From Candidatus Saccharimonadota bacterium (lineage in GTDB: Bacteria; Patescibacteriota; Saccharimonadia; Saccharimonadales; UBA4665): DNA of 32,000 nt. Below are positions 1,675 through 31,927 of this stretch, one piece after another. Location of the stretch: assembly GCA_016700375.1 (NCBI GenBank), contig CP065016.1:120001-152000 (forward strand), read 5' to 3'. Within the stretch, counting starts at the first letter, position 1, and the number at the start of each line of letters is the position of its first letter. Under the pieces are notes generated by a model, which made no database searches, was not told the DNA's origin, and saw nothing but the letters and a program-made list of their open reading frames with translations. Made by a program: the position numbers and the translations under genes.

Positions 1675-1785
1675 ACGATAAGTTGGCACTCTTGACTTGA
1701 GAGTGCTAATTTGGCTATACTTAACAGGTAACGATTAATCCCAGGTGAAATTAATCTGGGGTCACAGTATGAAATGAGGTGAAAC

Positions 1786-7437: not shown

Positions 7438-7442
7438 TCGCT

Positions 7443-7595
7443 ATGCTCCAATTACCAATTACCAATTACCAATTACCAATGAATTATCAATTTTCAGTTA
7501 CCAATGAAGCTGCAAATGCCACATCGCTACAAGCTAATGTATTGAAAATTGAAAATTGTAAACTGCAAATTGCAGCGACTGAAAGGAGTGTCTAA
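7443..7595 (+). CDS. Spacer-spanning mini-ORF A (50 aa) in the rpoB-rpoC heptamer-repeat spacer
   Basis: The product is MLQLPITNYQLPMNYQFSVTNEAANATSLQANVLKIENCKLQIAATERSV*. This is the only stop-free frame of the spacer. The ATG lies 5 nt after the rpoB TAG, with the SD GGGGAGGAGG inside the rpoB 3' end. The stop TAA overlaps the rpoC ATG (TAATG, 7593-7597). Repeat units are (CCAATTA)x4 at 7448-7475 and an ATTGAAA-type array at 7541-7575. Confidence 0.5.
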   Translation: MLQLPITNYQLPMNYQFSVTNEAANATSLQANVLKIENCKLQIAATERSV

Positions 7596-11686: not shown

Positions 11687-13207
11687 CTACAGAGTAAGAA
11701 GGTCGATACTTCTAATAGATATACCCCGTCGAGATGCATGGTCTACCGCGATATATCCAATTGCATTGCGTAAATCAGGCAATGCATGCGAGTATGCTTC
11801 TTTCCTACTGCCCGCCGATTGTAAGCCGTGTTTTCGTGCGTAACGTTTCATCTGTGCTGGCAGCATGGCAAAGCTGTCGATTTGATCTCTTTCCTGGGCA
11901 AGGACCAGGTGCAGCAACTCTGTCGGTAAAATGAGTATCTGAGCAAGGACTTTATAGTCTTCACTTCTCATGTTGCGTAGATTAAGTAGACCTGACGAAT
12001 GAAGACTTATTGTTTTAGCACGGACGTTTTCAGGCGCAAGACCGAGTGCGGTAGGCATGATATTTACAATCCTGACGGGGTCTAACCCCAAAGCAGCCAT
12101 AAAAGCCATACGAGCCTTGAGACTCTCTGGACTAATACTAAGTATGGAGGGGCTAGAGTTGATAAGAGTAGCAGGTTCAAACCCTAAATCTCGGATTGTT
12201 TGAAACTTTAACTTAACATGTTCGGTCGAGTTGCCTAAGCTACGCGGATTTACAGTAAAAATTCGCCTAGCGTTTAACCCCAAGGCTGTTGCATTATCAA
12301 ATTTTGCTTGTATATTCTCAATCGACATGCCAAGCACTGAGGGAAGAAAATTGATTGTCTTGACAGGGTTAATCCCCAGTGAGATCAAGGCATTATACAT
12401 TTCACTGATAGCCCTAACAGACCTGCCAATGACAATAGGGTCTTTATGTATAAGTTTTAATGCATCAAATCCTAAATTAGTTAGATTCTCTACTTTATAC
12501 TTAACAGTGTCTACAGATAGGCAAATCGCAGTCGGATAGGTATTAATAATTGCTACAGCGTTGATGCCAAGTGCTGTCATGCTTTCAACCTTTGTTCTTA
12601 TGTTTTCGGTTGAATACCCTAGGGCTGTCGGCACTTTGGCGATAACCGTATGTGCATCTAGGCCTAGGGCTGAGATATTATCAAATTTTTTTTGTATCTC
12701 TTCCGGCGCTAAACCAAGTACAATGGGGTATTTATGTATAATTTCTCGTTCATCCATACCAAGGGAATGCAGATTTTCAATTTTTATTCTGATGTTTTTG
12801 CCTGAAAAGCCAAGCGCTGAAGGAAGGCCTTGAACGATACTCGTTACATCAAGCCCCGCAGCCGTCATCTCACGTAAAGCTTCTATAGTGGTGCCTGAGG
12901 GGAAAAGGGTCGGATAGCGGTCGAGTATCTTTATGTATGTGCTGTGCATGGGGTGGTCAGAGCAACTCCAGCCAAGACTCTCACCAAAAAAAATGCGGCG
13001 CGCTTCGACGGTCTTAGCGATGAGCGTTGGTTGGCTATGTGGATTCATAACGCACGATGCCTCTATGATTAAGGGGTTTAGAGCAGTGATCTCCTCTTCT
13101 ATAATAGCCCTATTTGCAAGCGCGCTAAACCAGACCGCATCATCTGGATGCAGCTGAACCGCAATGTCGTCACATTGCTCAACTAGTCTAACATTCAGCT
13201 CAGACAT
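11687..13207 (-). CDS. mTERF-like repeat protein (about 10 tandem 32-aa repeats)
   Basis: The 506-aa ORF has regular repeats, for example IIHKYPIVLGLAPEEIQKKFDNISALGLDAHT and VIAKVPTALGYSTENIRTKVESMTALGINAVA. Their consensus is I-x3-P-x2-L-x2-S-x-E-x-I-x2-K-x3-L-x2-LG-x5, which matches the mTERF motif as I recall it. TATAAT (13218-13223, minus strand) lies 10 nt before the ATG. The gene is convergent with rpoC. Confidence 0.6.
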   Translation of the reverse strand: MSELNVRLVEQCDDIAVQLHPDDAVWFSALANRAIIEEEITALNPLIIEASCVMNPHSQPTLIAKTVEARRIFFGESLGWSCSDHPMHSTYIKILDRYPTLFPSGTTIEALREMTAAGLDVTSIVQGLPSALGFSGKNIRIKIENLHSLGMDEREIIHKYPIVLGLAPEEIQKKFDNISALGLDAHTVIAKVPTALGYSTENIRTKVESMTALGINAVAIINTYPTAICLSVDTVKYKVENLTNLGFDALKLIHKDPIVIGRSVRAISEMYNALISLGINPVKTINFLPSVLGMSIENIQAKFDNATALGLNARRIFTVNPRSLGNSTEHVKLKFQTIRDLGFEPATLINSSPSILSISPESLKARMAFMAALGLDPVRIVNIMPTALGLAPENVRAKTISLHSSGLLNLRNMRSEDYKVLAQILILPTELLHLVLAQERDQIDSFAMLPAQMKRYARKHGLQSAGSRKEAYSHALPDLRNAIGYIAVDHASRRGISIRSIDLLTL

Positions 13208-16089: not shown

Positions 16090-16503
16090 TTGCCTACCAT
16101 TAACCAACTGGTACGCAAGCCACGCGTAAAGGTGACAACCAAGACCAAGTCACCGGCGCTGCAGCGCGTTACCAACAACCTCAAAACGAAGAGTTATGAA
16201 AAAGCTGCGCCGTTCAAGCGCGGCGTGTGCGTAAAAGTTACCACCAAAACACCAAAGAAACCAAACTCAGCCCTCCGCAAGGTTGCCCGCGTGCGCCTTG
16301 GTAACGGCTACGAAGTGTGGGCCTACATTGGTGGTGAAGGCCACAACCTGCAAGAACACGCCGTCGTTATGATTCGTGGTGGTCGCGTGAAGGATCTTCC
16401 TGGTGTGCGCTACCACATTGTGCGCGGCACACTCGACCTTCAGGGCGTCCAAAACCGCAAACAAGGCCGCAGTAAGTACGGCGCGAAGAAGGAGAGCAAG
16501 TAG
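16090..16503 (+). CDS. rpsL: 30S ribosomal protein S12
   Basis: The sequence is (M)[47 protein letters not shown] start at 16090 gives the canonical N-terminus, with GAAAGGGG upstream. Confidence 0.92.
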
Positions 16504-16508
16504 TCGCT

Positions 16509-16658
16509 ATGCTCCAATTATCAATTAGCAATTTACAATTTTCAATGAATGATCAATTAGCAATTACCAATGAAAAGCAGAATCGCCAATCGCTAATCGC
16601 CATTCCATCGATAATCGATAATCGAAAATCGGTAATCACGACTGAAAGGAGCCTGTAG
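16509..16658 (+). CDS. Spacer-spanning mini-ORF B (49 aa) in the rpsL-rpsG heptamer-repeat spacer
   Basis: The product is MLQLSISNLQFSMNDQLAITNEKQNRQSLIAIPSIIDNRKSVITTERSL*. The first 20 nt after and including the upstream stop (TAGTCGCTATGCTCCAATTA) are identical to spacer A. The stop TAG overlaps the rpsG GTG (TAGTG, 16656-16660). Degenerate CAATTAN and AATCGNN 7-mers are present. Confidence 0.5.
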   Translation: MLQLSISNLQFSMNDQLAITNEKQNRQSLIAIPSIIDNRKSVITTERSL

Positions 16659-17177: not shown

Positions 17178-17543
17178 ATGGCTGTCAATAATTTCAAAGA
17201 CTTAATTGCTTGGCAAAAATCTCATCTCCTGGTGCTAGAAATATATACAATAACAAGCACTTTTCCAAAGTCGGAGCAATTTGGCTTAACGAATCAACTT
17301 CGTAGAGCAGCGGTCTCGATTGTGTCAAATATTGCCGAAGGTTTTGGCCGTCGGACTGTAGCAGATAGAACGCACTTTTACGATATGGCACGAGCATCAT
17401 TGCATGAAGTTCAAGCTCAGCTTATGGTTGCGCGTGATGTTGGCTTCATGCAAGACACTGTACATGAGAAAATCGATACATTCAGCATAGAATGCCATAA
17501 AATATTGACAGGCTTAATTAATAAAACAAATGGTACGAAATAA
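17178..17543 (+). CDS. Four-helix-bundle protein (23S rRNA intervening-sequence protein family)
   Basis: It has the characteristic sequence FKDLIAWQKSHLLVLEIY..FPKSEQFGLTNQLRRAAVSIVSNIAEGFGR. The length is 121 aa. Confidence 0.85.
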   Translation: MAVNNFKDLIAWQKSHLLVLEIYTITSTFPKSEQFGLTNQLRRAAVSIVSNIAEGFGRRTVADRTHFYDMARASLHEVQAQLMVARDVGFMQDTVHEKIDTFSIECHKILTGLINKTNGTK

Positions 17544-19686: not shown

Positions 19687-20103
19687 ATGAGTAAAAAACC
19701 GACTGATCTAGATGATGTGGTGAACGTTATCTCGGATTTGACCGAGTTGTTTTCGACGCGCTTCGATAAAATGGATCAGCGCTTCGACAAAATGGATGAA
19801 CGCTTCGACAAAATGGATCAGCGCTTCGACAAAATGGACGAGCGCTTCGACAAAATGGATGAACGCATCAACAGCATCGATATGCGCCTGTTTAGCGTTG
19901 AGCAGAAGCTACTGGAGCATGACGTACAATTCGCAAAAATCAATGAACGTATCGACCATCTCTACAGTGTGCTAGACAGTCACATGAAGCGGATTGAGGA
20001 TATCGTGGCTGACAATGTAGCCCGCGACGCGCAACAAGCGCGCATGGAAAAGTGGATTTTCCAAATTGCCGATAAACTTGACCTAAAACTGAATTACGAA
20101 TAG
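19687..20103 (+). CDS. Small coiled-coil protein with RFDKMD(Q/E) heptad repeats
   Basis: The 138-aa product has five perfect 7-aa repeats. Its C-terminus (ARMEKWIFQIADKLDLKLNYE) matches the paralogs at 3325 and 21630. Confidence 0.7.
   Translation: MSKKPTDLDDVVNVISDLTELFSTRFDKMDQRFDKMDERFDKMDQRFDKMDERFDKMDERINSIDMRLFSVEQKLLEHDVQFAKINERIDHLYSVLDSHMKRIEDIVADNVARDAQQARMEKWIFQIADKLDLKLNYE
19759..19863 (+). repeat. 21-bp tandem repeat x5 (coding)
   Basis: The unit is CGCTTCGA(T/C)AAAATGGA(T/C)(CAG/GAA/GAG), repeated head to tail. A sixth degenerate unit follows at 19864-19884. Confidence 0.9.
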
Positions 20104-21955: not shown

Positions 21956-22369
21956 ATGACGCACGAAACTAGCAAAGCATTTGTCGACTATTACCAGCTG
22001 CTTGGTGTTCAACCAGATGCAATGAACGAAGATATACGTACTGCGTTTGTTCGGCTTGCCAAGCTGCAACACCCTGACACTGGCGGTTCCCTTGAAGATA
22101 TGCAGCAGCTCAACCTCGCCTACATGACGCTTAAAAATCCTCAAACGCGGCGAGCATACGACATGATGCATAGCTTTCAAACAGGTACAAGCGAATTGCA
22201 TTATAGAGATATGCCAATGAGCGGCCACGCCGCAAAACCAAACGCCGAAGACGATGAAATAGACGATTTTATTAACGAAATCTTTGCCGAATACGCCGCA
22301 AAACCGTCGAAAAAACCCTTTCATAAAAAGGCCGCCTCCGCTCTCCGCTTCTACCGCAGAAAAACCTAA
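21956..22369 (+). CDS. J-domain protein
   Basis: The sequence DYYQLLGVQPDAMNEDIRTAFVRLAKLQHPDTGG..AYMTLKNPQTRRAYD carries the HPD motif. The product is 137 aa with no DnaJ zinc-finger region. Confidence 0.8.
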   Translation: MTHETSKAFVDYYQLLGVQPDAMNEDIRTAFVRLAKLQHPDTGGSLEDMQQLNLAYMTLKNPQTRRAYDMMHSFQTGTSELHYRDMPMSGHAAKPNAEDDEIDDFINEIFAEYAAKPSKKPFHKKAASALRFYRRKT

Positions 22370-22444
22370 GCCCGACACAACTTATCTGTGACAGGCTGTA
22401 AGGTATCTTACTGTCATTACCTGCTGGTGACCTATACTGCTGAT

Positions 22445-22957
22445 ATGCCAGAAATAATTGGGGATAATCCGGGTGGCCCGGATGAGGTTTGGGGAGGAAA
22501 ACAATTACATTTTGGCCCGTTGCTAGATGTGTTTGTGGGCGAAGAAATTATGGGAACTAGCGAGCGGCAGGAGCGTGTTTTTGCCGCATTTTTACACAGA
22601 CCGGGTGAGGTAGTCGAAAACGAAACCCTGCAAAAGTTACTAGAACCAGATTCCAATGTCCCCGAAGGTCTAGTTGGAGTGCTTGGTCTTTTGCGACTCG
22701 TACAGGGCATGAGCGGGCACCCAAAGGGAACGCTTGAATTTTCGAGCGGCGGAAAGCACGTAAGTTTTGCGCTACCGCCTACTCGGCCGTTTAATATCAC
22801 TAGTCTCGAGCAAAGCAAATCAGTAGTCAAAACTGCGCTCGAATCACCAAAAGCCAGAATCATAGGCGGATCTCTCATAGTTGGCGCAGCCGCAACAGCG
22901 GCATTTACGCGTCTAAAACAGGTACGCCAACAGCGAAAACATAGCGAACCGTCATAA
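22445..22957 (+). CDS. Hypothetical protein with C-terminal TM helix, apparently leaderless
   Basis: TATACT (22433-22438) lies 6 nt before the ATG at 22445. The C-terminal hydrophobic segment is IIGGSLIVGAAATAAF. The track start at 22388 (GTG) is less likely. Confidence 0.5.
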   Translation: MPEIIGDNPGGPDEVWGGKQLHFGPLLDVFVGEEIMGTSERQERVFAAFLHRPGEVVENETLQKLLEPDSNVPEGLVGVLGLLRLVQGMSGHPKGTLEFSSGGKHVSFALPPTRPFNITSLEQSKSVVKTALESPKARIIGGSLIVGAAATAAFTRLKQVRQQRKHSEPS

Positions 22958-23178: not shown

Positions 23179-23511
23179 ATGGCAGAAGCCAAACAACCAG
23201 TACCGGGCAAGCAGCGAATTCGTATTCGCCTGAAGGCCTACGACCACAAAATCATTGACCAAGCCGCTAAGCAAATTGTAGATACGGCGCTTCGCACCGG
23301 CGCGAGCCTGGCTGGGCCAATCCCACTGCCAACGCGCAAGAGCACGTTTACAGTGGTAAAGAGCCCTCACGTGTACAAAAAAGGACGCGAACAGTTTGAA
23401 ATGCGTGTACATAAGCGCCTGATAGACGTCTTCGAACCGACCCCAAAGACTATCGATAGCCTCATGAACCTCTCTCTCCCCGCTGGCTGCGACGTCGAAA
23501 TCAAGATGTAA
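23179..23511 (+). CDS. rpsJ: 30S ribosomal protein S10
   Basis: The sequence is [60 protein letters not shown]. Confidence 0.96.
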
Positions 23512-23520
23512 CTTATTGGT

Positions 23521-24363
23521 CTAGCCAGCCTGTTTAATTGCTGCAATGTAATTTGGAAGCTGAAAAGTAAGCTCTATTTGACGAGGAGAGTCTGGCGATG
23601 CGCCATTAACTGCCCGCGTACATACTGTAGAATAATTAGGGTCGCTCACCAAGCGGTTATAAAAATCCATTCGTATGGAAGATAAGGTGTCTTCGTCCAA
23701 TGTTCTGTTGCCGACCCGATAGGGTGGCATAAAAGAGCCGCCAAGTTTAGAAGATAAACGAAGTGCGCTCTCACAAAAGCCATGATACTCTTCATCAAAC
23801 ACAGAGCCTGACAGTATCACCCCGCCAACCGCAAGGACACGCTTCATTTCATCTGCTAAAGCCAGAGCCTCATCCTGCGAAGGTGTCCAGTAAGATGCGT
23901 ATGAATCGTGTATGACATGAGCAGTTGCGTCTTTAAGTGTTCGAAGACCATCTAAGGCCAGTCCAGCTATAACGTCGTTTCCTGCGCTAGCTTGATACTG
24001 TGCGTTTAAGTCATCTTGTTCAAGGGCTATTCTACGGCTATTTCTGAACCAAGATAAAAAATCGGATCTTCCTGCGCCAATGTCGATAACTGTTTTGCCT
24101 TCGGCGAAGTTTGTTAGTGCTGCTAGGGAAATTCCGTGAGCACGAGCTAATTGCGAGCCGGTTCGGTCGGTACGTACTCGATCACTCGCTATACCTGAGT
24201 TCTTACGGTATGTAGTGAGCCGTGCGGTACATGCATTGACGGCAAGGGGTATTGCCGAATGTCCATCTATAACCGTACGCAGATTCTGTAAGTAAATGCT
24301 GGACGGTTCTGTGTCTACACGGTATCTAAATACATCTTGAGCCGTCCCAGTATGTCTCTGCAT
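23521..24363 (-). CDS. Class I SAM-dependent methyltransferase (putative), leaderless
   Basis: Motif I is [10 protein letters not shown], with a downstream [10 protein letters not shown] strand. ATG 24363 lies 7 nt after TGaTATACT on the minus strand (-10 at 24371-24376). The track start at 24393 is a TTG. Confidence 0.6.
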
Positions 24364-24422
24364 AGTATATAGTATATCATAAAATATAGACAAAGTAAAT
24401 AATATGTGCTATAATAGGAAGC
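24364..24422. promoter_or_regulatory. AT-rich divergent promoter region for two leaderless genes
   Basis: On the + strand, TGcTATAAT (24407-24415) ends 7 nt before ATG 24423. On the - strand, TATACT (24371-24376) lies 7 nt before ATG 24363. Confidence 0.55.
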
Positions 24423-26024
24423 ATGACGGTTGCTCCTAAGGTCGAGACAGCTGCAATGATGGAGGGTGCTGAAAAACCCTTTGAGGGCTTTGGTGCTGAA
24501 CTAGATGCAGCTAACTTTTACTTTAAGCACACGCACGCTATAGACCCGCAGCGCGTGGAGCGAGTAGTTACCTTATTAGAAGATTTTTCTGGTCCCAGAA
24601 TGAATTCGGCAGCAAAAAGCGCAGTTTTCTTAAGGGATATTTGCTCCGGCGTCGAAGATTCCTTGCTGGCACGTAATGCCACCTGGGCGCTGAATACGTA
24701 CCGCACTAATACCTTTGATACTGAAGAAACCCAAACGTATAAGCTGGCGATTGCTCGAGACGTTAAGCGAATTGACGATTTTAGTCGCGAGATGTTCGAA
24801 CAGGAGGCACGGACCTGTTCTGTTGCTGGTATGGTCTTTAGCGGTATTACACGAGTACTGAGCAAAAAAGAGCGCCGGGCGCACCAAGACCAACGGTGGT
24901 TGCGCGATTCTAACGCAAATGCTGGCGAGCTCCAAGAGCTTCTCGATACCAATAAACGGGCCATAAACCTTGAAGCAATGGTACACTACAGCGCCGAGGT
25001 GCTGGATGATCTCATGGTCGCTACCGGAGCGGTAGACGGCGTAAGGATGCCCGATGACGAAGTTCTCATGCGCAGAATCAGAGATGTAGATGTCATTTTG
25101 GGGCCGTTCCTGGAGATTATTGGGCATGATGGCATGGCAATGGCGCTCAGAAGCCATGCGAATATAGTTCGTCTACAAAAAACCGGGAACGTAGCCTTTG
25201 TCGACAGGGCAAAGAACATGCTCGAGCAATATACCGATAGAGAATATATTGCCGGCCAAATCGAAAAACTTTACGGGGAGCTTTTTGGAGGCGACAGCGT
25301 TGTAGAGCATGTTATTAGCAACAAAACCCAACACGGTATAGCCGTAGGTGAATCTGCATTTCGCTGGAGTGAATGTTATGCGAATGCTCGTGCGGTGTGG
25401 CGCGTAAAATCAGTTGGCTCGCTTGCAATGAAATTGTATCGGTACAGTAAAGAAGGGAAATCAACTGCGACGCCGCAAGATGTTATCGGTGTAACGCTCA
25501 TCACTGACGACCCTGAACAGCTGAATAGCCTTTATCCCATGCTAGTTTTGAGCGTAGAATCATCACAAGCCATTAAGACGACTGTCGCCCCAAGCAAGAA
25601 GAGCGCCTATCATGTTCGGGGTGACGAGTTGTATGTGGAATTGATTTCTAAAGTGGTAAGCGAGCAATTCACTGAGGATGCCTGTACATTGCTTAGTCTC
25701 AGCCCGGTAGAAATAGATACCAAGAACGACGAAAATAACCTTCATCAAACCGCAAAAGCGACATTTACGTTTCATGCTTTGCCGCTTGAAGTGCAGTGCC
25801 AGACAGAATGGGCACGTGAGCGTTCTCGTATTGGAGCGGGCGCACATGGTTTTCATAAAAGCGGCGTCAGAGAGTTAAACCAGCATTTTATAACACAACT
25901 CCATAGTAGAAGGGCTGAATTAGGCACCATGGAGCTCACGAAGGCAAGTGCCGATAGTACCAGAAGATTTATGTCAAGCGCCGCTCAGAGAGGCATACCA
26001 CCGGTAAACTACGGCATTGTTTAA
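24423..26024 (+). CDS. RelA/SpoT-domain nucleotidyltransferase-like protein with unknown N-terminal region of about 300 aa
   Basis: The C-terminal half carries the ordered synthetase-type motifs WRVKSVGSLAMKL, DVIGVTLI, KKSAYHVRG and PLEVQCQTEWARERSRIGAGAHGFHK. These correspond to RxKS..S..K, D..G.R.I, Y.S.H and EvQIRT..h.wAe..H..YK. No HD hydrolase motif was recognised. Confidence 0.6.
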   Translation: MTVAPKVETAAMMEGAEKPFEGFGAELDAANFYFKHTHAIDPQRVERVVTLLEDFSGPRMNSAAKSAVFLRDICSGVEDSLLARNATWALNTYRTNTFDTEETQTYKLAIARDVKRIDDFSREMFEQEARTCSVAGMVFSGITRVLSKKERRAHQDQRWLRDSNANAGELQELLDTNKRAINLEAMVHYSAEVLDDLMVATGAVDGVRMPDDEVLMRRIRDVDVILGPFLEIIGHDGMAMALRSHANIVRLQKTGNVAFVDRAKNMLEQYTDREYIAGQIEKLYGELFGGDSVVEHVISNKTQHGIAVGESAFRWSECYANARAVWRVKSVGSLAMKLYRYSKEGKSTATPQDVIGVTLITDDPEQLNSLYPMLVLSVESSQAIKTTVAPSKKSAYHVRGDELYVELISKVVSEQFTEDACTLLSLSPVEIDTKNDENNLHQTAKATFTFHALPLEVQCQTEWARERSRIGAGAHGFHKSGVRELNQHFITQLHSRRAELGTMELTKASADSTRRFMSSAAQRGIPPVNYGIV

Positions 26025-26280
26025 AGGTTTACCAAAAATCACTCGTAGTATTATGTGCAACGGGTTGACAGGGGTTTGGGTTTTGTGATACCCTGTTGGG
26101 TACATACAAACATTTCCGCATGGTGATGTGAGGTAGGCCCCGCCAGAGGCGAGGAACCCCCGACCGCCATTTTCTTAATGTCACTGTACAAGACATTAAC
26201 CGCGGATGGGTGAGTATCAATATCAATAACTCTTATAAAAAAGGAGCGTGTGGGTTCATGTGAACCTACGCAACATAACT

Positions 26281-26901
26281 ATGAAGGCACTCATAACGAG
26301 AAAGGTTGGCATGACCAGTACCATCGCTGAAGATGGTACGACTCAGGCTGTAACCCTGCTTTCCGCTAGTCCCTGTGTGATTACACAGGTGAAAACCGAT
26401 GAAACAGACGGGTATACCGCTGTACAAATCGGCTGCGAGGAAGTCAAAGAACACAAAGTAGCAAAACCACAGGCCGGTCATCTCAAGCCAGCCAAACAAA
26501 TTGTGCGTATTATGCGCGAGTTCCGTGTAGCGGAAGTCACCGAAGACCTCAAAGTTGGAGAAACACTCAACGCCGAGGTCTTTTCAGTTGGTGACACGGT
26601 GCATGTAACTGGCACGAGCAAGGGTAAGGGTTGGGCTGGTACTATTCGCCGCCACAACTTCCACCGCGGCCGCAAGACGCATGGTGGCCGTAGCTACCGC
26701 CGCGTTGGTTCTATAGGTTCTATGTACCCTCAACACATTTTGCCCGGCAAAAAGATGGCCGGACACCTCGGTCACGACCAAGTCACTGTACGCAATCTCA
26801 AAATTGCACTTGTCGACGCTGAAAAGGGGTATATCGGTGTTGTGGGAGCTGTACCTGGTCCGCGCAAAGGTATTGTTATAATTCGCGGAGACGAATTATG
26901 A
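26281..26901 (+). CDS. rplC: 50S ribosomal protein L3
   Basis: MKALITRKVGMTSTIAEDGTTQAVTLL.. gives the canonical L3 N-terminus from ATG 26281. In-frame GTGs at 26248 and 26260 lie nearer the SD AAGGAG (26241-26246) and are alternatives. Confidence 0.9.
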   Translation: MKALITRKVGMTSTIAEDGTTQAVTLLSASPCVITQVKTDETDGYTAVQIGCEEVKEHKVAKPQAGHLKPAKQIVRIMREFRVAEVTEDLKVGETLNAEVFSVGDTVHVTGTSKGKGWAGTIRRHNFHRGRKTHGGRSYRRVGSIGSMYPQHILPGKKMAGHLGHDQVTVRNLKIALVDAEKGYIGVVGAVPGPRKGIVIIRGDEL

Positions 26902-27041
26902 AAATGAATAGATTACCCATTACCCTGTCACCTGTCACCTTGGATTATCCTGTAGCCTGTCACCATGGTTATACGTCACAGGTTACACCTACGTCACACG
27001 TCACACGTGACACGCTAATCAGCGATGAAAGGAGCTTCTAA
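26898..27041 (+). CDS. Spacer-spanning mini-ORF C (47 aa) in the rplC-rplD spacer
   Basis: The product is [47 protein letters not shown]. The start overlaps the rplC stop (ATGA, 26898-26901) and the stop overlaps the rplD ATG (TAATG, 27039-27043). The 7-mers are ATTACCCx2, TGTCACCx2, GTCACACx2 and GTGACAC. Confidence 0.5.
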   Translation: MKMNRLPITLSPVTLDYPVACHHGYTSQVTPTSHVTRDTLISDERSF

Positions 27042-27700
27042 TGGCCGTACCAACCTATACTGGTGCTGGCGTAAAAGCCACAACTCCCGCAAAACTCAGT
27101 AAAGAAATCTTTGCAGTGGAAGTAAAAAACCACCAATTACTGAAGCAAGCGTATGAGGCATATCTCGCAAATGGCCGAGACAACCTAGCCGTCACGAAAA
27201 CTCGGGGACTCGTGAGTGGTGGTGGTCGCAAGCCATGGAAACAGAAGGGTACCGGCCGAGCTCGTTTTGGTAGCTCTCGCAACCCAATTTGGCGCGGCGG
27301 TGGCATTGTCTTTGGCCCTACTGGCGAAGAAAACTATACCAAGAAAATTTCTACGACCAGCAAGCGCGTTGCACTGCGGCAGGCCTTAAGCCTTGCAAAT
27401 GCTGGCGGGAAGCTCATTGTTCTTGAAAAGCTTGCCAGCCGTGAAGGCAAAACAGCCGAAATGGCGAAATTACTCACAAAAGTCGGTGTTACTAGAAGCG
27501 CACTCGTTGTTGTTGCTAGTAAGAATGCCGAGCTCGTGAACGCTACCGCGAACTTACAGAATGTCATGCTGGTAAGCGCAAAGTACCTCAATGTGTTCGA
27601 CATTATGAATGCCGACCATATCGTTATGACGAGCGACGCCCTCAAGGTCGTCGAAGAATGGCTGAAGCCAGTTGCTAAGACCGCGAAGGAGGCCAAATAA
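27041..27700 (+). CDS. rplD: 50S ribosomal protein L4
   Basis: The sequence is GGGRKPWKQKGTGRARFGSSRNPIWRGGGIVFGP. Confidence 0.96.
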   Translation: MAVPTYTGAGVKATTPAKLSKEIFAVEVKNHQLLKQAYEAYLANGRDNLAVTKTRGLVSGGGRKPWKQKGTGRARFGSSRNPIWRGGGIVFGPTGEENYTKKISTTSKRVALRQALSLANAGGKLIVLEKLASREGKTAEMAKLLTKVGVTRSALVVVASKNAELVNATANLQNVMLVSAKYLNVFDIMNADHIVMTSDALKVVEEWLKPVAKTAKEAK

Positions 27701-28113
27701 TGCACGTTTTAAAACCACGTTTGAGTGAAAAGGCATTTGGTCTTAGCCAGACAACGAACACGTTTGCTATTGATGTTCCAAGCGAGCTCAACAAGTACGA
27801 AGTTGCCGCTGTTGTTAAGAAGCAATTTGATGTAGAGATTAAGTCTGTTCGACTGGTGAACCGCAAGGGTAAAGTCAAGCGTGTTATGAACACGACTGGC
27901 AAGCGTAGTAGTAACCGAAAGGGTGTTCAGGGCGATGTAAAGAAGGCGTATGTCACGCTCAAAGCGGGCAGTCACCTGCCATTCTTTGCCGCTGCCGAAG
28001 AAGAAATTGCGAAGGCTGCAGCCGATAAAGCCAAAGCCGCTAAAAAAGACGCTGCTCCTGCTAAGAAAGCCGGCGGCCTTAAGAAGCTTGTCGGCAAGAA
28101 GGAGGCAAAGTAA
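27700..28113 (+). CDS. rplW: 50S ribosomal protein L23 (with Lys/Ala-rich C-terminal tail)
   Basis: It has an L23 core (KPRLSEKA..NKYEVAAVVKKQFDVEIKSVRLVN). The start overlaps the rplD stop (TAATG). Confidence 0.93.
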   Translation: MHVLKPRLSEKAFGLSQTTNTFAIDVPSELNKYEVAAVVKKQFDVEIKSVRLVNRKGKVKRVMNTTGKRSSNRKGVQGDVKKAYVTLKAGSHLPFFAAAEEEIAKAAADKAKAAKKDAAPAKKAGGLKKLVGKKEAK

Positions 28114-28114
28114 T

Positions 28115-28228
28115 ATGAATCATGAATCACGAATCATGAATCTAGCATGGGAAGTTATCGGCCGCAAGGCGGCAGGCATGATTCATACTACATACTTCAT
28201 GCTTCCGCGACTGAAAGGAGCTGCATAA
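28115..28228 (+). CDS. Spacer-spanning mini-ORF D (37 aa) in the rplW-rplB spacer
   Basis: The product is MNHESRIMNLAWEVIGRKAAGMIHTTYFMLPRLKGAA*. The ATG lies 1 nt after the rplW TAA, with AAGGAGG in the rplW 3' end. The stop overlaps the rplB ATG (TAATG, 28226-28230). It is a paralog of mini-ORF E. Confidence 0.55.
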   Translation: MNHESRIMNLAWEVIGRKAAGMIHTTYFMLPRLKGAA

Positions 28229-29061: not shown

Positions 29062-29406
29062 ATGGCAAGTCCTAACCCCAATAAAACATGTGGAACCTGT
29101 GCTCTCGGCGAACCACAAATCGATACTTTTTTCACATGCGGCAATTACAAACGTGTTCCACAATTTGATTCAACGGACGCTATAAATTGTAACGTTGACA
29201 ACACAAACATCATTAGTTTGGGATGGAGTGTCCCTGGTCTAGAAGGGGTATGGCTAGATAGATACCCAAAGAACGCTAGCTGCGGACCATGCGCTGGTCT
29301 ACTAGCCGCGACGCGCTCTCAGGTTGTATGTCACTTAACAAACATTGCTCTTCGGAAAGAGAACAGTGACTGGTGCGGTCAATGGCAGCCAGAAGGGAGT
29401 TTTTAA
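29062..29406 (+). CDS. Cys-rich 114-aa protein inserted between rplB and rpsS
   Basis: The ATG lies 3 nt after the rplB stop, and the stop TAA abuts the rpsS ATG. There are 8 Cys in two similar modules (C10-x2-C13-x12-C26-x16-C43 and C74-x2-C77-x12-C90-x14-C105). The 3' end carries the rpsS SD (GAAGGGAG). Confidence 0.6.
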   Translation: MASPNPNKTCGTCALGEPQIDTFFTCGNYKRVPQFDSTDAINCNVDNTNIISLGWSVPGLEGVWLDRYPKNASCGPCAGLLAATRSQVVCHLTNIALRKENSDWCGQWQPEGSF

Positions 29407-29679
29407 ATGAGTCGTTCATTAAAGAAGGGGCCGTTTATCGATCCGAAGCTCGCGAAAAAAGTCGTGGCGCTTGGCCCAGAGGATCGCACCATTATCAAAA
29501 CATGGGCCCGTGCTAGCACAATTGCCCCAGAGTTTGTTGGTAAAACATTTGCCGTACACAATGGCAAAGTCCACGTACCGGTTTTTGTTACCGAAAATAT
29601 GGTTGGCCACAAGCTCGGTGAATTTAGCCCAACGAGAAAGTTTAGGTCTCATGGCGGAAAGCTAGCCAAAGGTAAATAG
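29407..29679 (+). CDS. rpsS: 30S ribosomal protein S19
   Basis: The sequence is [39 protein letters not shown]. Confidence 0.96.
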
Positions 29680-29680
29680 G

Positions 29681-29797
29681 ATGAATAAAGAATCAAGAAT
29701 CATGAATCATGTTAAGGAAATTATCAGCAGCGAAGCTGCTGGCATGATTCATACTTCATACTTCATGATTCAGAAGCCGGAGGATATATGTCTGTAA
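29681..29797 (+). CDS. Spacer-spanning mini-ORF E (38 aa) in the rpsS-rplV spacer
   Basis: The product is MNKESRIMNHVKEIISSEAAGMIHTSYFMIQKPEDICL*. The ATG lies 1 nt after the rpsS TAG. The stop at 29795-29797 lies 7 nt past the rplV ATG at 29788. Confidence 0.5.
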   Translation: MNKESRIMNHVKEIISSEAAGMIHTSYFMIQKPEDICL

Positions 29798-30168
29798 AAG
29801 CAGAATCTAAAGGCGTACGCTTGAGCCCTCGTAAGGTTGCCGCTGTTGCGACGCTTGTACGAGGTCGCACTGTAGCCGATGCTATTGTCATTCTTGAACA
29901 TACACCCCGCCGGGCAGCTCTTTCTGTGCTTAAGACAATCAAGAGTGCTCAAGCAAATGCCGCCCACAACCACAACTACAAAGCCGATACCCTAGTCATT
30001 ACTGAAATTACGGTCAATCATGGCCCACGTATGAAACGATTTCGACCTGCTGCCATGGGGCGCGCGCTGCCATACATGAAGCGGAGCAGCCACATACGAG
30101 TTCTCGTCGATGGTGAACAACGTCCAACCAAAGCTGTTAAACCTGTAGCGAAGGAGACTAAGTCATGA
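29788..30168 (+). CDS. rplV: 50S ribosomal protein L22
   Basis: The sequence is RLSPRKVAAVATLVRGRTVADAIVILEHTPRRAA..ANAAHNH.. Confidence 0.95.
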   Translation: MSVKAESKGVRLSPRKVAAVATLVRGRTVADAIVILEHTPRRAALSVLKTIKSAQANAAHNHNYKADTLVITEITVNHGPRMKRFRPAAMGRALPYMKRSSHIRVLVDGEQRPTKAVKPVAKETKS

Positions 30169-30305
30169 AAATCCTAAGCACTAAGCACGAAATTCTAAAC
30201 AAATTCAAATATTCTAATGTTTCAAATTTTCAAATTTTGGAACTTGTTCATTGTTTAGCATTTAGAAATTCGAATTTTGGATTTACTCCAGAAAGGAGTG
30301 CATGA
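30165..30305 (+). CDS. Spacer-spanning mini-ORF F (46 aa) in the rplV-rpsC spacer
   Basis: The product is MKILSTKHEILNKFKYSNVSNFQILELVHCLAFRNSNFGFTPERSA*. The start overlaps the rplV stop (ATGA, 30165-30168). The stop overlaps the rpsC ATG (TGATG, 30303-30307). Confidence 0.5.
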   Translation: MKILSTKHEILNKFKYSNVSNFQILELVHCLAFRNSNFGFTPERSA

Positions 30306-30935: not shown

Positions 30936-31082
30936 ATGATTTCATCATTTCAATTATCCTTTGGCCTGTCACCTGTCACATTGGATTATCCTGTCGCAAT
31001 TACCAATTGTTACATGTCACATGTCACGCCAATGTCACAGGTTACAGGTGACATGTTAATCGCGACTGAAAGGAGCTTTTAA
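30936..31082 (+). CDS. Spacer-spanning mini-ORF G (48 aa) in the rpsC-rplP spacer
   Basis: The product is [48 protein letters not shown]. The ATG lies 1 nt after the rpsC TAA, and the stop overlaps the rplP ATG (TAATG, 31080-31084). It is a paralog of mini-ORF C. Arms 30965-30984 and 31029-31048 are complementary at 18 of 20 positions. Confidence 0.55.
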
Positions 31083-31495
31083 TGTTGCTCCCAAAAAGAA
31101 CTAAATTCCGCAAAGTCCGCAAGGGCAAGATTCGCGGTGTTGCCACAGCTGGCAATTACATTGCCTACGGCGAATACGCTTTGCAAGCACAAGGTCACGA
31201 ACGTATAACGAGCCGACAAATTGAGGCCAGCCGTCAGGCGATGACAAGGTACATTAAGCGCGGTGGAAAAATCTGGATTCGCATTTTCCCGCATACGCCC
31301 GTTACCCGCAAGCCACTGGACGTCAAAATGGGTAGTGGCAAGGGTTCGCCTGAGTTTTTTGTTGCCAAAGTTCGCCCGGGCACCATTATGTTTGAAATGC
31401 AGGGTGTCAGTGAGGAAACTGCAAGAGAAGCTATGCGCCTCGCTGGTCACAAGCTGCCAGTCAAGACAAAATTTGTCGTGAAGGAGGGCGTGTAA
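31082..31495 (+). CDS. rplP: 50S ribosomal protein L16
   Basis: The sequence is [44 protein letters not shown]. Confidence 0.96.
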
Positions 31496-31805: not shown

Positions 31806-31927
31806 TGGAAAATCCAAATTCCAAATTCCAAACTCCAAACAAATTCCAGCACTCAAATTCCAACGAAGCTCATTTGGAACTTGGAACTTGGAACTTGGAG
31901 CTTACAGCTCCTGAAAGGAGTCTGTAG
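31805..31927 (+). CDS. Spacer-spanning mini-ORF I (40 aa) in the rpmC-rpsQ spacer
   Basis: The product is MENPNSKFQTPNKFQHSNSNEAHLELGTWNLELTAPERSL*. The start overlaps the rpmC stop (TAATG, 31803-31807). The stop TAG lies 2 nt before the rpsQ ATG. The CCAAATT-type array faces a complementary GAACTTG x3 array. Confidence 0.5.
   Translation: MENPNSKFQTPNKFQHSNSNEAHLELGTWNLELTAPERSL

Follow-up and report, generated by a model that had tools for sequence, protein, structure and literature searches.

Gene organization of the rpsJ-rplC interval

In the 32,000-nucleotide window of a Candidatus Saccharibacteria genome, which is the whole stretch of DNA analysed here, the genes rpsJ and rplC are separated by 2,769 bp (23512-26280). 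The interval contains a minus-strand gene of 280 aa, a plus-strand gene of 533 aa (hereafter the RSH-like gene) and a conserved promoter and leader of rplC. The initial annotation had described about 2.7 kb between the two ribosomal-protein genes, and all of its coordinates hold. The features are as follows, in coordinates of the window.

23179..23511, plus strand: rpsJ (ribosomal protein S10), left border of the slot; Pfam Ribosomal_S10 E 2.7e-35, NCBIfam rpsJ_bact E 1e-42
23521..24363, minus strand: gene of 280 aa with a probable class I SAM-methyltransferase fold; weak HMM matches, hypothetical at NCBI
24364..24422, between the two strands: AT-rich divergent promoter region of 59 bp; ATG-to-ATG spacer, promoter scan
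24423..26024, plus strand: 533-aa divergent RelA/SpoT homologue, QQS69653.1; profile, Pfam, AlphaFold/Foldseek
24492..25292, plus strand: predicted all-helical N-terminal region of this protein, about aa 24-290; Foldseek, profile, Pfam in relatives
25296..25862, plus strand: predicted SYNTH (RelA_SpoT nucleotidyltransferase) domain, about aa 292-480; conserved columns, RelSeq alignment, Pfam
25623..25730, plus strand: hypervariable patch, aa 401-436; differences to the L108 orthologue
26056..26280, plus strand: rplC promoter and structured 5' leader, right border of the slot; nucleotide similarity, RNAalifold, covariance model
26281..26901, plus strand: rplC (ribosomal protein L3); NCBIfam L3_bact, TIGR03625, E 1.8e-69

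Both borders of the slot are conserved. S10 is 92-95% identical across the Saccharibacteria compared, and on the other side the nucleotide sequence becomes similar to that of L001, L010, L011 and L018 again exactly at 26056. The rplC promoter has TTGACA at 26065-26070 and an extended -10 around 26086-26094, and is followed by a 5' leader of about 190 nt which ends in AAGGAGCGTGTG. RNAalifold on the leader alignment (A6) gave eight pairs with compensatory changes, and the covariance model R1 matched 26121-26200 as well as the same position upstream of rplC in eight other loci; no match to the leader was found in Rfam.

The slot between rpsJ and the rplC promoter and leader is hypervariable, with different cargo in almost every Saccharibacteria genome. 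It had been assumed that rplC normally follows rpsJ directly, which is not the rule in this group, where the gap is shorter than 300 bp in just 2 of 64 genomes and its median is 1.6 kb. The ORFs of the slot fall into 119 clusters, 101 of them singletons, and the RSH-like gene is present at only two of the 64 species-representative rpsJ-rplC loci. Other tenants are often nucleotide enzymes (NUDIX, adenosine deaminase, PfkB, HAD). Even close relatives differ in the presence of the RSH-like gene at this site: L010, a relative about 95% identical, lacks it there and carries a different cassette of 78 aa. The mosaic pattern of synonymous divergence suggests that cargo has been exchanged in the slot by recombination. 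Since the site is hypervariable and holds no housekeeping pair conserved throughout the clade, the accessory role proposed earlier for the two genes was not refuted by synteny.

RelA/SpoT homology of the 533-aa protein

QQS69653.1 is annotated at NCBI as 'hypothetical protein IPP75_00695'. Judged from sequence profiles and the predicted structure, it is a true but remote RelA/SpoT homologue of the nucleotidyl (pyrophospho)transferase superfamily; a pseudo-HD domain is followed in it by SYNTH and by a short helical tail (about 55 aa). The membership in this superfamily claimed in the initial annotation was thus upheld by the profile, by Pfam matches in relatives, by the fold and by the catalytic residues that are kept. 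The window protein alone stayed below the cutoff of Pfam RelA_SpoT (PF04607; 15.5 bits against a cutoff of 27, E 0.021; E 0.0021 for the C-terminal half alone), as did ten of ten diverse members tested singly, but 56 of 92 relatives matched it at E 0.01 or better (best 1e-9). The profile of 131 relatives retrieved only RSH chains from the PDB (E 1.5e-7 to 1e-3), including RelSeq (1.5e-7), B. subtilis Rel (2.6e-7), FaRel2 (3e-7) and RelA (4.5e-6), and the match began at the end of the HD domain and continued colinearly through SYNTH. The AlphaFold model was confident (pLDDT 87.8, pTM 0.90). The best 14 Foldseek matches in the PDB were all N-terminal halves of long RSHs (Rel, RelA, SpoT; probability 0.97-1.00), with alignments spanning about 470-530 columns, and the sole SAS match stood at rank 31, far below the long RSHs.

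The motifs from which the homology had been proposed, RVKSVGSLAMKL, DVIGVTLI, SAYH and EVQCQT..GAHGFHK, are all contained in the ORF. SAYH, although present, does not correspond to Syn3 of RSHs: when the profile is aligned to RelSeq, the equivalent of 'GYQSIHT' falls at H441-Q-T-A-K445-A-T447-F. The SYNTH domain has the motifs W-R327-x-K329-S-x-G-S-L-A-x-K337, P-x-D353-x-x-G-x-T358, H441-x-x-A-K445-x-T447 and E456-x-Q458-x-x-T...R465...R469-x-G...H475...K479. The family alignment (131 sequences) has a mean column identity of 16%, and R327, K329, D353, E456 and H475 are invariant in it; G332, K337 (98%), Q458 (92%), K445, T447, R465, R469, G471 and K479 are conserved to at least 90%. R327, K329, K337, D353, E456 and Q458 align with R241, K243, K251, D264, E323 and Q325 of RelSeq, and the alignment supports the view that the catalytic Asp/Glu and the ATP-binding Arg/Lys are kept. 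The position of Y308 also remains aromatic, with Y, F or H in 112 of 131 sequences (Y or F in most relatives, H441 in the window protein). R269 of RelSeq (DxxGxR) is replaced by T358 in 92% of the family and H312 (GYxSxH) by K445 in 98%, both being substrate-contact residues in characterised RSHs, and the conserved arginines R465 and R469 are new, in place of RelSeq H332 and E336; the enzyme may thus have another substrate or product than (p)ppGpp synthetases.

The SYNTH domain carries a family-specific insertion (about aa 362-436), and the hypervariable patch sits in it, immediately before the acceptor-binding loop. The L108 orthologue is 95% identical and differs at 25 amino acids, nine of which lie within aa 401-436, where pN/pS is about 1.06 as compared with about 0.1-0.3 elsewhere (small counts, against L108). 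The pLDDT of the model dips to 61-72 in this patch.

The first 300 aa or so, previously called unrecognisable, were shown by profile and Foldseek to correspond to a degenerate HD (pseudo-hydrolase) domain followed by the central helices of long RSHs. In the predicted structure, Foldseek aligned this region with the N-terminal halves of RelSeq, RelA, B. subtilis Rel and SpoT. It includes the RSH-typical 'YAPL..G' helix, here ILGPFLEIIGHDG, and the family profile is colinear with RelSeq residues 134-188. Pfam HD matches five of 92 relatives (best E 9e-6), and HD_4 matches one of the 92 and also L093. The window protein has DP and LRD where HP and LHD are expected, and relatives have LHD; only 42 of 131 family sequences have H in the HD column, and the ED motif is not conserved. 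The sequence comparison thus showed the metal-binding His and the HD dyad to be lost from the window protein and from about two thirds of the family. The functional hydrolase site (His...His-Asp...Asp ligands and the ED motif), which is required in Rel and SpoT and not in RelA, is not found in the 533-aa protein. At the other end, no TGS or ACT match was found by Pfam in the window protein or in 92 relatives, and the ribosome-docking C-terminal TGS/helical/ZFD/RRM region was shown on this sequence evidence to be absent.

Comparison with known RSH systems

Long RSHs (RelA; RelSeq 1-385, PDB 1vj7) gave the best sequence-profile and structural matches of the 533-aa protein. They share with it an HD-type helical domain, the 'YAPL..G' central helix and SYNTH in the same order, as well as the conserved ATP- and Mg-binding catalytic residues, and RelA has a degenerate HD catalytic dyad as well. 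In contrast to long RSHs, the 533-aa protein has no TGS, helical, ZFD or RRM/ACT domain and ends about 55 aa after SYNTH, its N-terminal region exceeds theirs by about 100 aa, about 45-75 aa are inserted into SYNTH, R269 and H312 are changed to T and K with R465 and R469 added, and sequence conservation in its family is far lower.

The toxSAS enzymes (FaRel, FaRel2, PhRel, CapRel) and Tas1 have the RSH SYNTH fold in common with it, and FaRel2 is among the top profile matches of the family, on the N-terminal half of SYNTH; fast evolution and an accessory-like distribution are further points of likeness to toxSAS. However, toxSAS consist of a single domain, and their antitoxin is either encoded beside them in a conserved two-gene operon or fused to them as a C-terminal domain (PMC7229694). 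In the 533-aa protein SYNTH is preceded by a pseudo-HD domain, and neither a conserved partner nor a PADLOC match was found for it. The pseudo-HD domain argues for a long RSH that has been truncated and against a toxSAS-type small alarmone synthetase. RelP and RelQ resemble it in lacking ribosome-binding domains, their activity being governed by expression and allostery and not by the ribosome, but they are single-domain tetramers of about 200-250 aa, unlike this two-domain protein of 533 aa.

Distribution and evolution of the family

The family was previously unannotated and was seen in this analysis only in Saccharibacteria. It comprises at least 244 clusters at 50% identity, with intact full-length ORFs of 500-620 aa, and the two members with a source name are both annotated as hypothetical. 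Most Saccharibacteria have been reported with an annotated (p)ppGpp synthetase (PMC6031116), which may or may not be this family.

The order rpsJ-RSH-rplC on the same strand, without the methyltransferase-like gene, occurs in L003/4, L005, L011, L018 and L090; L091 has the RSH gene alone after rpsJ on a contig that ends before rplC, and in L090-L092 the gene stands in the rpsJ slot without the methyltransferase-like gene. Elsewhere it follows tmk or DUF2130 and precedes rplJ-rplL (L007, L008, L115), or it lies between tmk and rplJ-rplL on the strand opposite to both (L102-L106). The synteny of the tmk-rplJ clade is stable, and its divergence is roughly clock-like and in step with the neighbours. 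In many lineages same-strand RSH genes lie within ribosomal-protein operons with spacers of 60-220 nt. The neighbours vary by lineage (the methyltransferase-like gene, a small membrane protein, a 393-aa protein of unknown function, or none), the small membrane protein is also encoded where the RSH gene is absent, and no partner gene conserved across lineages was found.

The RSH-like protein is 28-50% identical where L3 is 63-90% identical, and its identity is incongruent with that of L3. Between the window and L001 the methyltransferase-like proteins are 86% identical and the RSH-like proteins 28%; between the window and L108, dS is 0.005 for the methyltransferase-like gene and 0.065 for the RSH-like gene. 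The cassette dS of 0.005-0.065 compares with 0.09-0.41 in the flanks, and overall dN/dS is 0.33 for the RSH-like gene as against 0.22 for L23. When the two genes and the two ORFs upstream were searched against known anti-phage defence models (PADLOC, including CapRel), no family matched at E 1 or better. No relatives were found in the viral contigs searched, and BFVD gave only weak structural matches.

The methyltransferase-like gene and the divergent promoters

The minus-strand gene converges on rpsJ with 9 nt between the two stops, as had been noted. NCBI annotates the 280-aa form with an ATG start; an alternative TTG start would give 290 aa (23521-24393). The sequence weakly supports a class I SAM methyltransferase. 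The earlier assignment holds for the motif order but every HMM match is below threshold. The likeness to these enzymes lies in a glycine-rich motif I (hh[DE]hGxGxG), an acidic post-I residue and motifs II/III in canonical order, which in this protein appear as a motif I-like stretch, RRIALEQD (acidic post-I, IALEQD), AHVIHDSYA and a motif III-like stretch. No Pfam match was obtained with the full-length protein. With the core region, the best five matches were all to methyltransferase families, all colinear and all below threshold (Methyltransf_31 E 0.029, Methyltransf_17 0.047, Methyltransf_11 0.11, Methyltransf_23 0.14, MetW 0.23), the one to Methyltransf_11 covering profile positions 2-94 of 95; the NCBIfam DVU_1556 methyltransferase matched at E 0.007 with 15.8 bits against a cutoff of 155. 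The protein thus differs from the Methyltransf_11/_31 type in staying below all curated cutoffs (E 0.03-0.2), and about 80 aa at either end are extensions without known relatives. Its AlphaFold model, built on an alignment of three sequences, reached a pLDDT of 32, and a sequence search of the PDB gave no match. Homologues were found only in L001/L002 and L108-L112, the closest relatives of the window.

A neutral scan of the 59-bp divergent region agreed with the earlier observation that both genes start 7 nt after a -10 box. On the plus strand, TAGACA (24387-24392) and TATAAT (24410-24415) are 17 nt apart, with an upstream TG and 11 of 12 matches, 7 nt before the ATG at 24423; on the minus strand, TTTACT (24399-24394) and TATACT (24376-24371), also 17 nt apart, end 7 nt before the ATG at 24363. 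The -35 regions of these back-to-back promoters overlap. The number of promoter-like sites in the region was not above that in shuffled sequences (5 versus 4.5), and it is the quality and placement of the two promoters that count, not the number of sites. Because each -10 box ends 7 nt before its ATG, the mRNAs of both genes are probably leaderless. Nucleotide identity to L001 in the divergent region is 87% and extends to 6 nt before the start codon of the RSH gene.

Discussion

With evenly balanced confidence, we favour the explanation that the 533-aa protein is an expression-controlled alarmone synthetase corresponding to the catalytic N-terminal half of a long RSH. Its rate of evolution, far faster than expected of a housekeeping long RSH, speaks against this, as do the systematic replacement of two substrate-contact residues, its absence from this site in a relative about 95% identical and its presence at only two of the 64 loci, and several other explanations have to be weighed. 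The protein could belong to a conflict system, as a self-inhibited RSH toxin in which the hypervariable pseudo-HD domain and the insertion serve as sensor or antitoxin, like fused CapRel or toxSAS, and in which a trigger such as phage or contact with a competitor would lead to toxic (p)ppApp or to pyrophosphorylation of tRNA 3' ends, and so to translation shutdown. Several observations fit such a system: the divergence of the protein is extreme compared with every neighbour and does not follow the L3 tree, the gene comes and goes among close relatives (with the 78-aa cassette in L010), substitutions cluster at pN/pS of about 1 in the insertion beside the acceptor site, substrate-contact residues are replaced and extra conserved arginines stand near the active site, the slot with its 101 singletons among 119 ORF clusters behaves like a variable island, and the cassette dS below that of the flanks suggests recent transfer. 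Yet the protein has two domains and derives from long RSHs, no antitoxin-like gene is conserved beside it, neither PADLOC nor the viral contigs and BFVD pointed to such a system, same-strand siting in ribosomal-protein operons and the stable synteny of the tmk-rplJ clade are against it, dN/dS is only modestly above that of L23, and the fast evolution could come simply from weak constraint on residues away from the active site. Nothing found here points specifically to toxicity or defence, and we regard the conflict system as unlikely, though not negligible. A catalytically dead RSH-fold scaffold, or a gene decaying under relaxed selection, appears improbable: the low column identity, the lost HD site, the replacement of RelSeq R269 and H312 and the failure of the window protein and ten of ten diverse members to reach the Pfam cutoff singly would be expected of it, but ORFs are intact in at least 244 clusters, the only invariant columns are exactly the ATP- and Mg-binding catalytic residues of SYNTH, dN/dS is below 1 and the AlphaFold model is confident.

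Two further explanations concern the whole insert. The methyltransferase-like gene might form one module with the RSH-like gene, as modifier, antidote or regulator co-regulated from the 59-bp divergent promoter, and the back-to-back promoters and the arrangement conserved in L001/L002 and L108-L112 are in its favour. But other lineages have rpsJ-RSH-rplC without it, contrary to the functional pair proposed earlier, and it is absent from every other RSH context, including the tmk-rplJ and non-ribosomal ones; the histories of the two genes are discordant (86% versus 28% identity to L001, and dS of 0.005 versus 0.065 to L108), and the methyltransferase assignment itself is below threshold. We take the methyltransferase-like gene for a co-tenant of the slot, specific to this lineage, rather than for an obligate or functional partner of RSH, and the module, already weakened by this phylogenetic distribution, is distinctly improbable. 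The idea of a mobile genetic element (transposon or integrative) that landed as a 2.5-kb insert in the S10 operon is scarcely credible. The insert is replaced by another cassette in L010, and an IS481-family transposase adjoins the RSH gene in L002. However, the cassette has no integrase or transposase, no flanking direct or inverted repeats and no tRNA gene nearby, its GC content of 0.46-0.49 is like that of the flanks, and its breakpoints coincide with gene and promoter boundaries, so homologous exchange between conserved flanks fits better than transposition.

As an alarmone synthetase, the 533-aa enzyme would transfer the beta,gamma-pyrophosphate of ATP to the 3'-OH of an acceptor nucleotide, and its descent from long RSHs makes GDP or GTP the likeliest acceptor, with (p)ppGpp as the product. 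Rel and RelA bind to the ribosome and sense uncharged tRNA through the C-terminal region that is missing here, and C-terminally truncated E. coli RelA is a constitutive ppGpp synthetase. The classical signal of ribosome and uncharged tRNA would not be able to switch on the 533-aa enzyme, and its output would then be set mainly by the amount of protein made, with the pseudo-HD domain possibly acting as an internal brake. In the genome of the window the gene would be under its own strong, predicted leaderless promoter. Our results place an unannotated and very fast-evolving RelA/SpoT relative without a ribosome-sensing tail between two ribosomal-protein genes of a Saccharibacteria (CPR) genome, and an output set by expression would explain why such genes are sited in or next to strongly growth-regulated ribosomal-protein operons and nucleotide-salvage genes.

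Layout of the rpsJ-rplC interval

Both rpsJ and rplC are securely identified by Pfam and NCBIfam, and in the window they are separated by 2,769 bp that hold two divergent genes and a non-coding stretch. The two encoded proteins are identical to the NCBI 'hypothetical proteins' IPP75_00690 and IPP75_00695 (the latter QQS69653.1). The peptide motifs quoted in the initial annotation were all found in the sequence, as were the 9 nt between the facing stops of rpsJ and the minus-strand ORF and the divergent spacer of 59 bp, and a neutral promoter scan bore out the annotated -10 boxes 7 nt from both starts.

Features of the interval (window coordinates)
23179-23511, plus strand: rpsJ
23521-24363, minus strand: methyltransferase-like ORF, ATG start, 280 aa as in NCBI; a TTG lies upstream at 24393
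Minus strand: promoter of the methyltransferase-like gene, TTTACT-17-TATACT, -10 ending 7 nt before ATG 24363
Plus strand: promoter of the RSH (RelA/SpoT homologue) gene, TAGACA-17-TATAAT with upstream TG, 11/12 matches, -10 ending 7 nt before ATG 24423
24423-26024, plus strand: RSH ORF, 533 aa
256 bp: non-coding stretch before rplC
26056-26280, plus strand: rplC promoter and leader, conserved in relatives whatever is upstream
26065-26070, plus strand: rplC -35 box, TTGACA
26281-26901, plus strand: rplC

The promoter geometry at both divergent genes would fit leaderless transcripts, and the count of promoter-like sites in this divergent region is no higher than in shuffled sequence. The TTG at 24393 was rejected as the methyltransferase-like start, because it lies inside the promoter and ATG 24363 is used by NCBI and by the relatives.

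Identity of the 533-aa protein

As a single query, the 533-aa protein scored 15.5 bits against Pfam RelA_SpoT (cutoff 27, E 0.021) and gave no match in NCBIfam, PADLOC or the PDB sequences (PDB at E up to 10). A word-indexed homologue search returned just two sequences, 94% identical, and nothing further was gained when it was repeated with a 92-sequence profile. When 1.84 billion cluster representatives were scanned exhaustively with HMMER, 244 relatives emerged at E<=1e-3 and 168 at E<=1e-10, nearly all of them 480-630 aa long and 23-37% identical to the window protein. When a profile of 131 relatives was run against all PDB sequences, the matches were restricted to RSH proteins, namely the N-terminal half of RelSeq (the Rel N-terminal catalytic fragment, PDB 1vj7; E 1.5e-7), B. 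subtilis Rel (E 2.6e-7), FaRel2 (E 3e-7) and E. coli RelA (E 4.5e-6). These alignments are colinear: they start in the last helices of the hydrolase-type (HD) domain, with the 'YAPL..G' helix, take in Syn1 and Syn2, and reach the catalytic segment EIQIRT...AAHWxYK. Scanned singly, 56 of 92 relatives matched RelA_SpoT (best E 1e-9), five matched HD (best E 9e-6), one matched HD_4 and none matched TGS or ACT. The AlphaFold2 model built on the 92-sequence alignment has a mean pLDDT of 87.8 and a pTM of 0.90, and the 14 PDB structures that Foldseek ranks highest against it are without exception catalytic halves of long RSHs (RelSeq, RelA, B. subtilis Rel, SpoT), in alignments of about 470-530 columns that span the HD and nucleotidyltransferase (SYNTH) domains. 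The RelA/SpoT-like identity first proposed from motifs is thus upheld by the family profile, the Pfam matches of the relatives and the structural comparison. Because the Foldseek span covers both domains, the first 300 or so residues, previously described as unrecognisable, are in fact an HD-fold domain with central helices. The protein is the N-terminal half of a long RSH without the C-terminal regulatory region. Identity as a small alarmone synthetase was rejected on this architecture.

Mean column identity in the family alignment is 16%, and only R327, K329, D353, E456 and H475 are invariant; G332, K337, T358, G400, K445, T447, Q458, R465, R469, G471 and K479 are at least 90% conserved.

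Synthetase residues of the window protein and their RelSeq counterparts (HMMER alignment)
R327 / K329 / K337: RelSeq R241 / K243 / K251, ATP phosphates
D353: RelSeq D264, Mg2+
E456 / Q458: RelSeq E323 / Q325, catalytic strand
H475 / K479: RelSeq H342 / K346, AAHWxYK

At the position of RelSeq Y308, which stacks on the acceptor base, an aromatic residue is retained: H441 in the window and Y/F in 104/131 relatives. The family departs systematically from RelSeq at R269 of the DxxGxR motif (T358), at H312 (K445), and at H332 and E336, where it has the conserved arginines R465 and R469. Ahead of the acceptor loop it has about 45-75 inserted residues (roughly aa 362-436), and the 'SAYH' formerly read as an RSH motif (Syn3) falls within this insertion and is rejected as such. 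The hydrolase site is degenerate, with DP and LRD in the window protein versus HP and LHD in relatives; across the family the HD column holds H in 42/131 and D in 56/131, and the first His is present in 45/131. Since the hydrolase site is degenerate and the synthetase residues are conserved, the family resembles RelA, in that it appears to pair a pseudo-hydrolase with an intact synthetase.

The methyltransferase-like gene

No Pfam family matches the full-length methyltransferase-like protein, and the class assigned to it in the initial annotation holds up only weakly. Its core region has five best Pfam matches that are all class I methyltransferase families, colinear and below threshold (E 0.03-0.23), the motif series I, post-I, II, III is recognisable in that order, and NCBIfam gives a DVU_1556-family methyltransferase at E 0.007. 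The AlphaFold model has a pLDDT of 32, PDB sequence searches gave no informative match, and no relatives were found in metagenome contigs. A class I methyltransferase fold is probable from these sequence features. Between rpsJ and the RSH gene, this gene is found only in the window and its closest relatives (L001/L002 and L108-L112 among the related Saccharibacteria loci, labelled with L numbers, compared with the window).

Occurrence of the RSH family

Metagenome relatives of the RSH gene were sought with a five-sequence sub-alignment. Every family member that could be placed lies on a Saccharibacteria contig, in the following arrangements.

Genomic contexts of the RSH gene
Context (a): rpsJ, RSH gene, optional other ORFs, rplC, on one strand, 60-220 nt after rpsJ
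Context (b): tmk (L007, L115) or DUF2130 (L008), RSH gene, rplJ-rplL
Context (b), variant (L102-L106): RSH gene between tmk and rplJ-rplL, on the strand opposite to both
Context (c): non-ribosomal site (L093-L101), lysA-like gene, RSH gene, rnhA

The members of context (a) are L003/4, L005, L011 (the same as L092 and L113), L018 and L090, all of which lack the methyltransferase-like gene, and L091 matches this context as far as its contig end. L006 (RSH gene after tmk) and L009 (after DUF2130) fit context (b) upstream, and their contigs stop before any rplJ. The genes dcd, tmk, thyA and DHFR are found in the context (b) neighbourhood. No phage relatives of the RSH protein appeared in a viral contig scan, and a BFVD fold search gave weak generic RSH matches.

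In L002, an IS481-family transposase gene (HTH_32 and rve; 792-1724, minus strand) lies directly downstream of the RSH gene and replaces the rplC side, while the remaining shared genes are identical to those of L001. L027 (CP025011, 'Ca. Teamsevenus rhizospherense') is the genome reported to be unable to make (p)ppGpp (PMC6031116). Its 2.7-kb rpsJ-rplC gap holds other genes, including a NUDIX hydrolase, and no RSH-family member was found within the 14.6 kb examined.

Evolutionary tempo

Genomes that share context (a) show 92-95% identity in S10, 63-90% in L3 and only 28-50% in the RSH protein, and RSH identity does not track L3 identity.

Protein identity in three pairs of loci
Window and L011: L3 90%, RSH 29%
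L001 and L005: L3 64%, RSH 42%
L018 and L090: L3 82%, RSH 50%

The window and L001 share 86% identity in the methyltransferase-like protein and 28% in the RSH protein. At the nucleotide level the two are 87% similar across rpsJ, the methyltransferase-like gene and the promoter, as far as 6 nt ahead of the RSH start; the similarity is lost over the RSH ORF and is back at 26058. Substitution rates were computed for the window and L108, whose RSH proteins are 95% identical.

Synonymous divergence and dN/dS, window versus L108
rpsJ: dS 0.41, dN/dS 0.010
methyltransferase-like gene: dS 0.005, dN/dS 0.646
RSH gene: dS 0.065, dN/dS 0.335
rplC: dS 0.09, dN/dS 0.023
rplD: dS 0.17, dN/dS 0.123
rplB: dS 0.13, dN/dS 0.000

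Across the ribosomal-protein genes of this pair dN/dS ranges from 0 to 0.22. The lower dS in the cassette (the contents of the slot upstream of the rplC promoter) than in the flanks indicates that the cassette is younger than they are, and the mosaic dS pattern would be best explained by recombination. Residues 401-436 hold 9/25 of the RSH amino-acid differences, with a pN/pS of about 1.06 from small counts. In the tmk-rplJ clade the RSH gene is stably syntenic yet fast, with an RSH identity of 25-34% against 46-60% for Tmk, or of 62% for both. Rapid change is thus a feature of the family itself; either diversifying selection or a weak constraint on the protein away from its active site may underlie it.

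A hypervariable slot between rpsJ and rplC

The slot was surveyed with L3 as anchor and one genome per species, which gave 80 Saccharibacteria loci, 64 of them with both rpsJ and rplC. The distance between the two genes varies from 134 bp to 5.6 kb (median 1.6 kb) and is shorter than 300 bp in only 2/64; the 184 ORFs in these gaps form 119 clusters, 101 of which are singletons. The sole common tenant, at 35/64 loci, is a predicted small membrane protein of about 90-120 aa encoded immediately upstream of the rplC leader. Examples within the survey range L012-L089 and in L001 are L013 3089-3397 and L001 8102-8416; the protein has no Pfam family and is absent from the window and from L010. Other recurrent tenants are NUDIX hydrolases (two families, 10 and 5 loci), a HAD hydrolase, a PfkB kinase, adenosine deaminase and a beta-lactamase-like protein; in L010-L089 the recurrent tenants are mostly nucleotide-metabolism enzymes. 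Within this L3-anchored set, the RSH gene occupies the gap in L011 and L018 only.

L010 is about 92-99% identical to the window in nucleotide sequence over the aligned ribosomal-protein genes and the rplC leader. Window positions 23511-26055 correspond to 558 unrelated bp in L010, which hold a 78-aa ORF with its own promoter and terminator, and the two sequences become similar again right at the rplC promoter. A transposon origin of the cassette was rejected, since terminal repeats are absent, as was a compositional anomaly, since its GC content is the same as that of the flanks.

The rplB-rpsS junction is a second hypervariable cassette slot within the S10 operon. An unannotated ORF of 108-114 aa occupies it in the window (29062-29406) and in L108 (10649-10975), 24% identical between the two where the adjacent L2 is 100% identical, and L001 has a 127-aa ORF at this position. 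Between tuf and rpsJ, the window (21956-22957) encodes a J-domain-only protein (137 aa, DnaJ E 9e-15) and then a 189-aa ORF of no known kind, in place of which L108 (3533-4394) has a 143-aa HIT/DcpS_C-like protein; the J-domain proteins of the two are 64% identical (dS 1.2).

Promoter and leader of rplC

The S10 operon is really split in this lineage, as had been claimed, and rplC has its own conserved promoter and leader. The extended -10 box is TACCCT in the window and TAATCT in relatives, and further blocks are conserved. The structured leader is about 190 nt long; RNAalifold predicts 35 pairs, 8 with compensatory changes. A covariance model of its core finds nine loci, all upstream of rplC and all in the window's sub-clade (window match 26121-26200), and a looser TGGTGATGTG motif stands upstream of rplC in 35/75 loci. 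No Rfam family matched the window, and the leader drew none either at E up to 1. The leader ends in AAGGAG-N-GTGTG, 33 to more than 100 nt before the rplC ATG depending on the genome; on visual inspection, a short upstream ORF may begin at this element in L018 and L012. Given the conserved promoter and leader, rplC and the following genes are very likely a transcription unit of their own. The leader is possibly autoregulatory, and could be a ribosomal-protein leader of that kind replacing the classical S10 leader.

Other features of the window

Dispersed intergenic repeats of 50-150 nt, with pairs 72-79% identical, lie between rpoB and rpoC and between many ribosomal-protein genes.

Dispersed repeats (window coordinates)
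7435-7594
16501-16628
26912-27043
28108-28205
29674-29771
30153-30302
30953-31084
31874-31926

Some hold short ATGAATCA-type repeats and a GC hairpin; one type is also present in the rplC-rplD gap of L010, and others in L083. MITE- or REP-like elements are one possibility for these repeats, and RNA structures within the operons another. Between rpsG and fusA (17178-17543) lies a gene of the '23S rRNA intervening-sequence protein' family (four-helix bundle, PF05635, E 3.7e-35), which has the same position in L001. A 138-aa ORF between fusA and tuf (19687-20103) contains a 21-nt tandem repeat at 19737-19904, in six overlapping register copies, whose heptad-like translation RFDKMDE suggests a coiled coil. 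The 506-aa protein encoded at 11687-13207 (minus strand) has mTERF repeats (PF02536, E 2e-25), a domain typical of organellar transcription termination factors and unusual in bacteria. A tRNA gene search found none.

Discussion

We propose that the RSH protein would be active as a pyrophosphokinase, probably with a guanine nucleotide as acceptor. C-terminally truncated RelA is constitutively active, and by analogy the activity of the RSH protein would be set by its expression level. Such control would give a rationale for siting the gene in growth-regulated ribosomal-protein and nucleotide-salvage neighbourhoods. The slot tenants, together with the dcd/tmk/thyA/DHFR home of the RSH gene, hint that nucleotide salvage is connected with ribosomal-protein clusters in these auxotrophs.

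The main rival, a self-inhibited RSH toxin or defence protein, would agree with the evolutionary tempo, the presence/absence pattern and the altered substrate-contact residues, but several points make it unlikely: the architecture has two domains, no conserved partner gene and no connection to PADLOC models or phages was found, and the gene sits inside operons and in stably syntenic surroundings. The same altered contacts could mark a pseudoenzyme, which is less likely beside the invariant synthetase residues. The divergent pair might also be an obligate methyltransferase-RSH module; this is less likely, because the restricted distribution and the discordant history of the methyltransferase-like gene speak against an obligate partnership. 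The replaceable cassette is less likely to be a mobile element, and no terminal repeats, integrase or tRNA gene flank it.

A bolder view, which we hold to be improbable, is that the diversified pool of self-contained RSH enzymes is a conflict or host-interaction system of recombination-swapped alleles with a triggerable translation shut-off. In each enzyme the pseudo-HD domain may then be the sensor and SYNTH the synthetase, and the ultra-conserved ribosomal-protein genes and rplC leader may serve as homology arms for swaps between species. If this were true, the ribosomal-protein operons of naturally competent episymbionts would double as exchange platforms for accessory cassettes, and shut-off would proceed by ppApp synthesis or tRNA pyrophosphorylation, the RSH protein then being no stringent-response enzyme.

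The RSH catalogue lists 30 SAS, 11 SAH and 13 long-RSH subfamilies (PMC7229694), and most Saccharibacteria have an annotated (p)ppGpp synthetase, one soil genome being without (PMC6031116). In the literature searched, no RSH or stringent-response description for Saccharibacteria or the wider CPR was found beyond the remark in PMC6031116. Returning to the RSH protein as a synthetase, its family is derived from the long RSHs, lacks the C-terminal region and has a pseudo-HD domain. What is new, on the evidence here, is an unusually fast, largely unannotated RSH variant in a hypervariable S10-cluster slot. The two family members with a named source carry the label 'hypothetical protein', and each of the 11 members run singly fell below the Pfam cutoff; this RSH enzyme is missed by standard annotation in many Saccharibacteria.

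CPR bacteria have tiny genomes and an obligate episymbiotic lifestyle, and alarmone-based growth control in them is an essentially unaddressed question. The rpsJ-rplC junction is a hypervariable cargo slot in this group, as other str/S10 junctions apparently are, which is relevant to interpreting 'conserved' marker-gene neighbourhoods in metagenome bins. The separate rplC promoter and leader matter for the organisation and regulation of ribosomal-protein operons in CPR bacteria. The family offers a concrete gene for studies of (p)ppGpp/(p)ppApp synthesis in organisms whose genetics have newly become possible, and with its dead hydrolase and no ribosome-sensing tail it is a natural experiment in which RSH regulation would be reduced to expression control.
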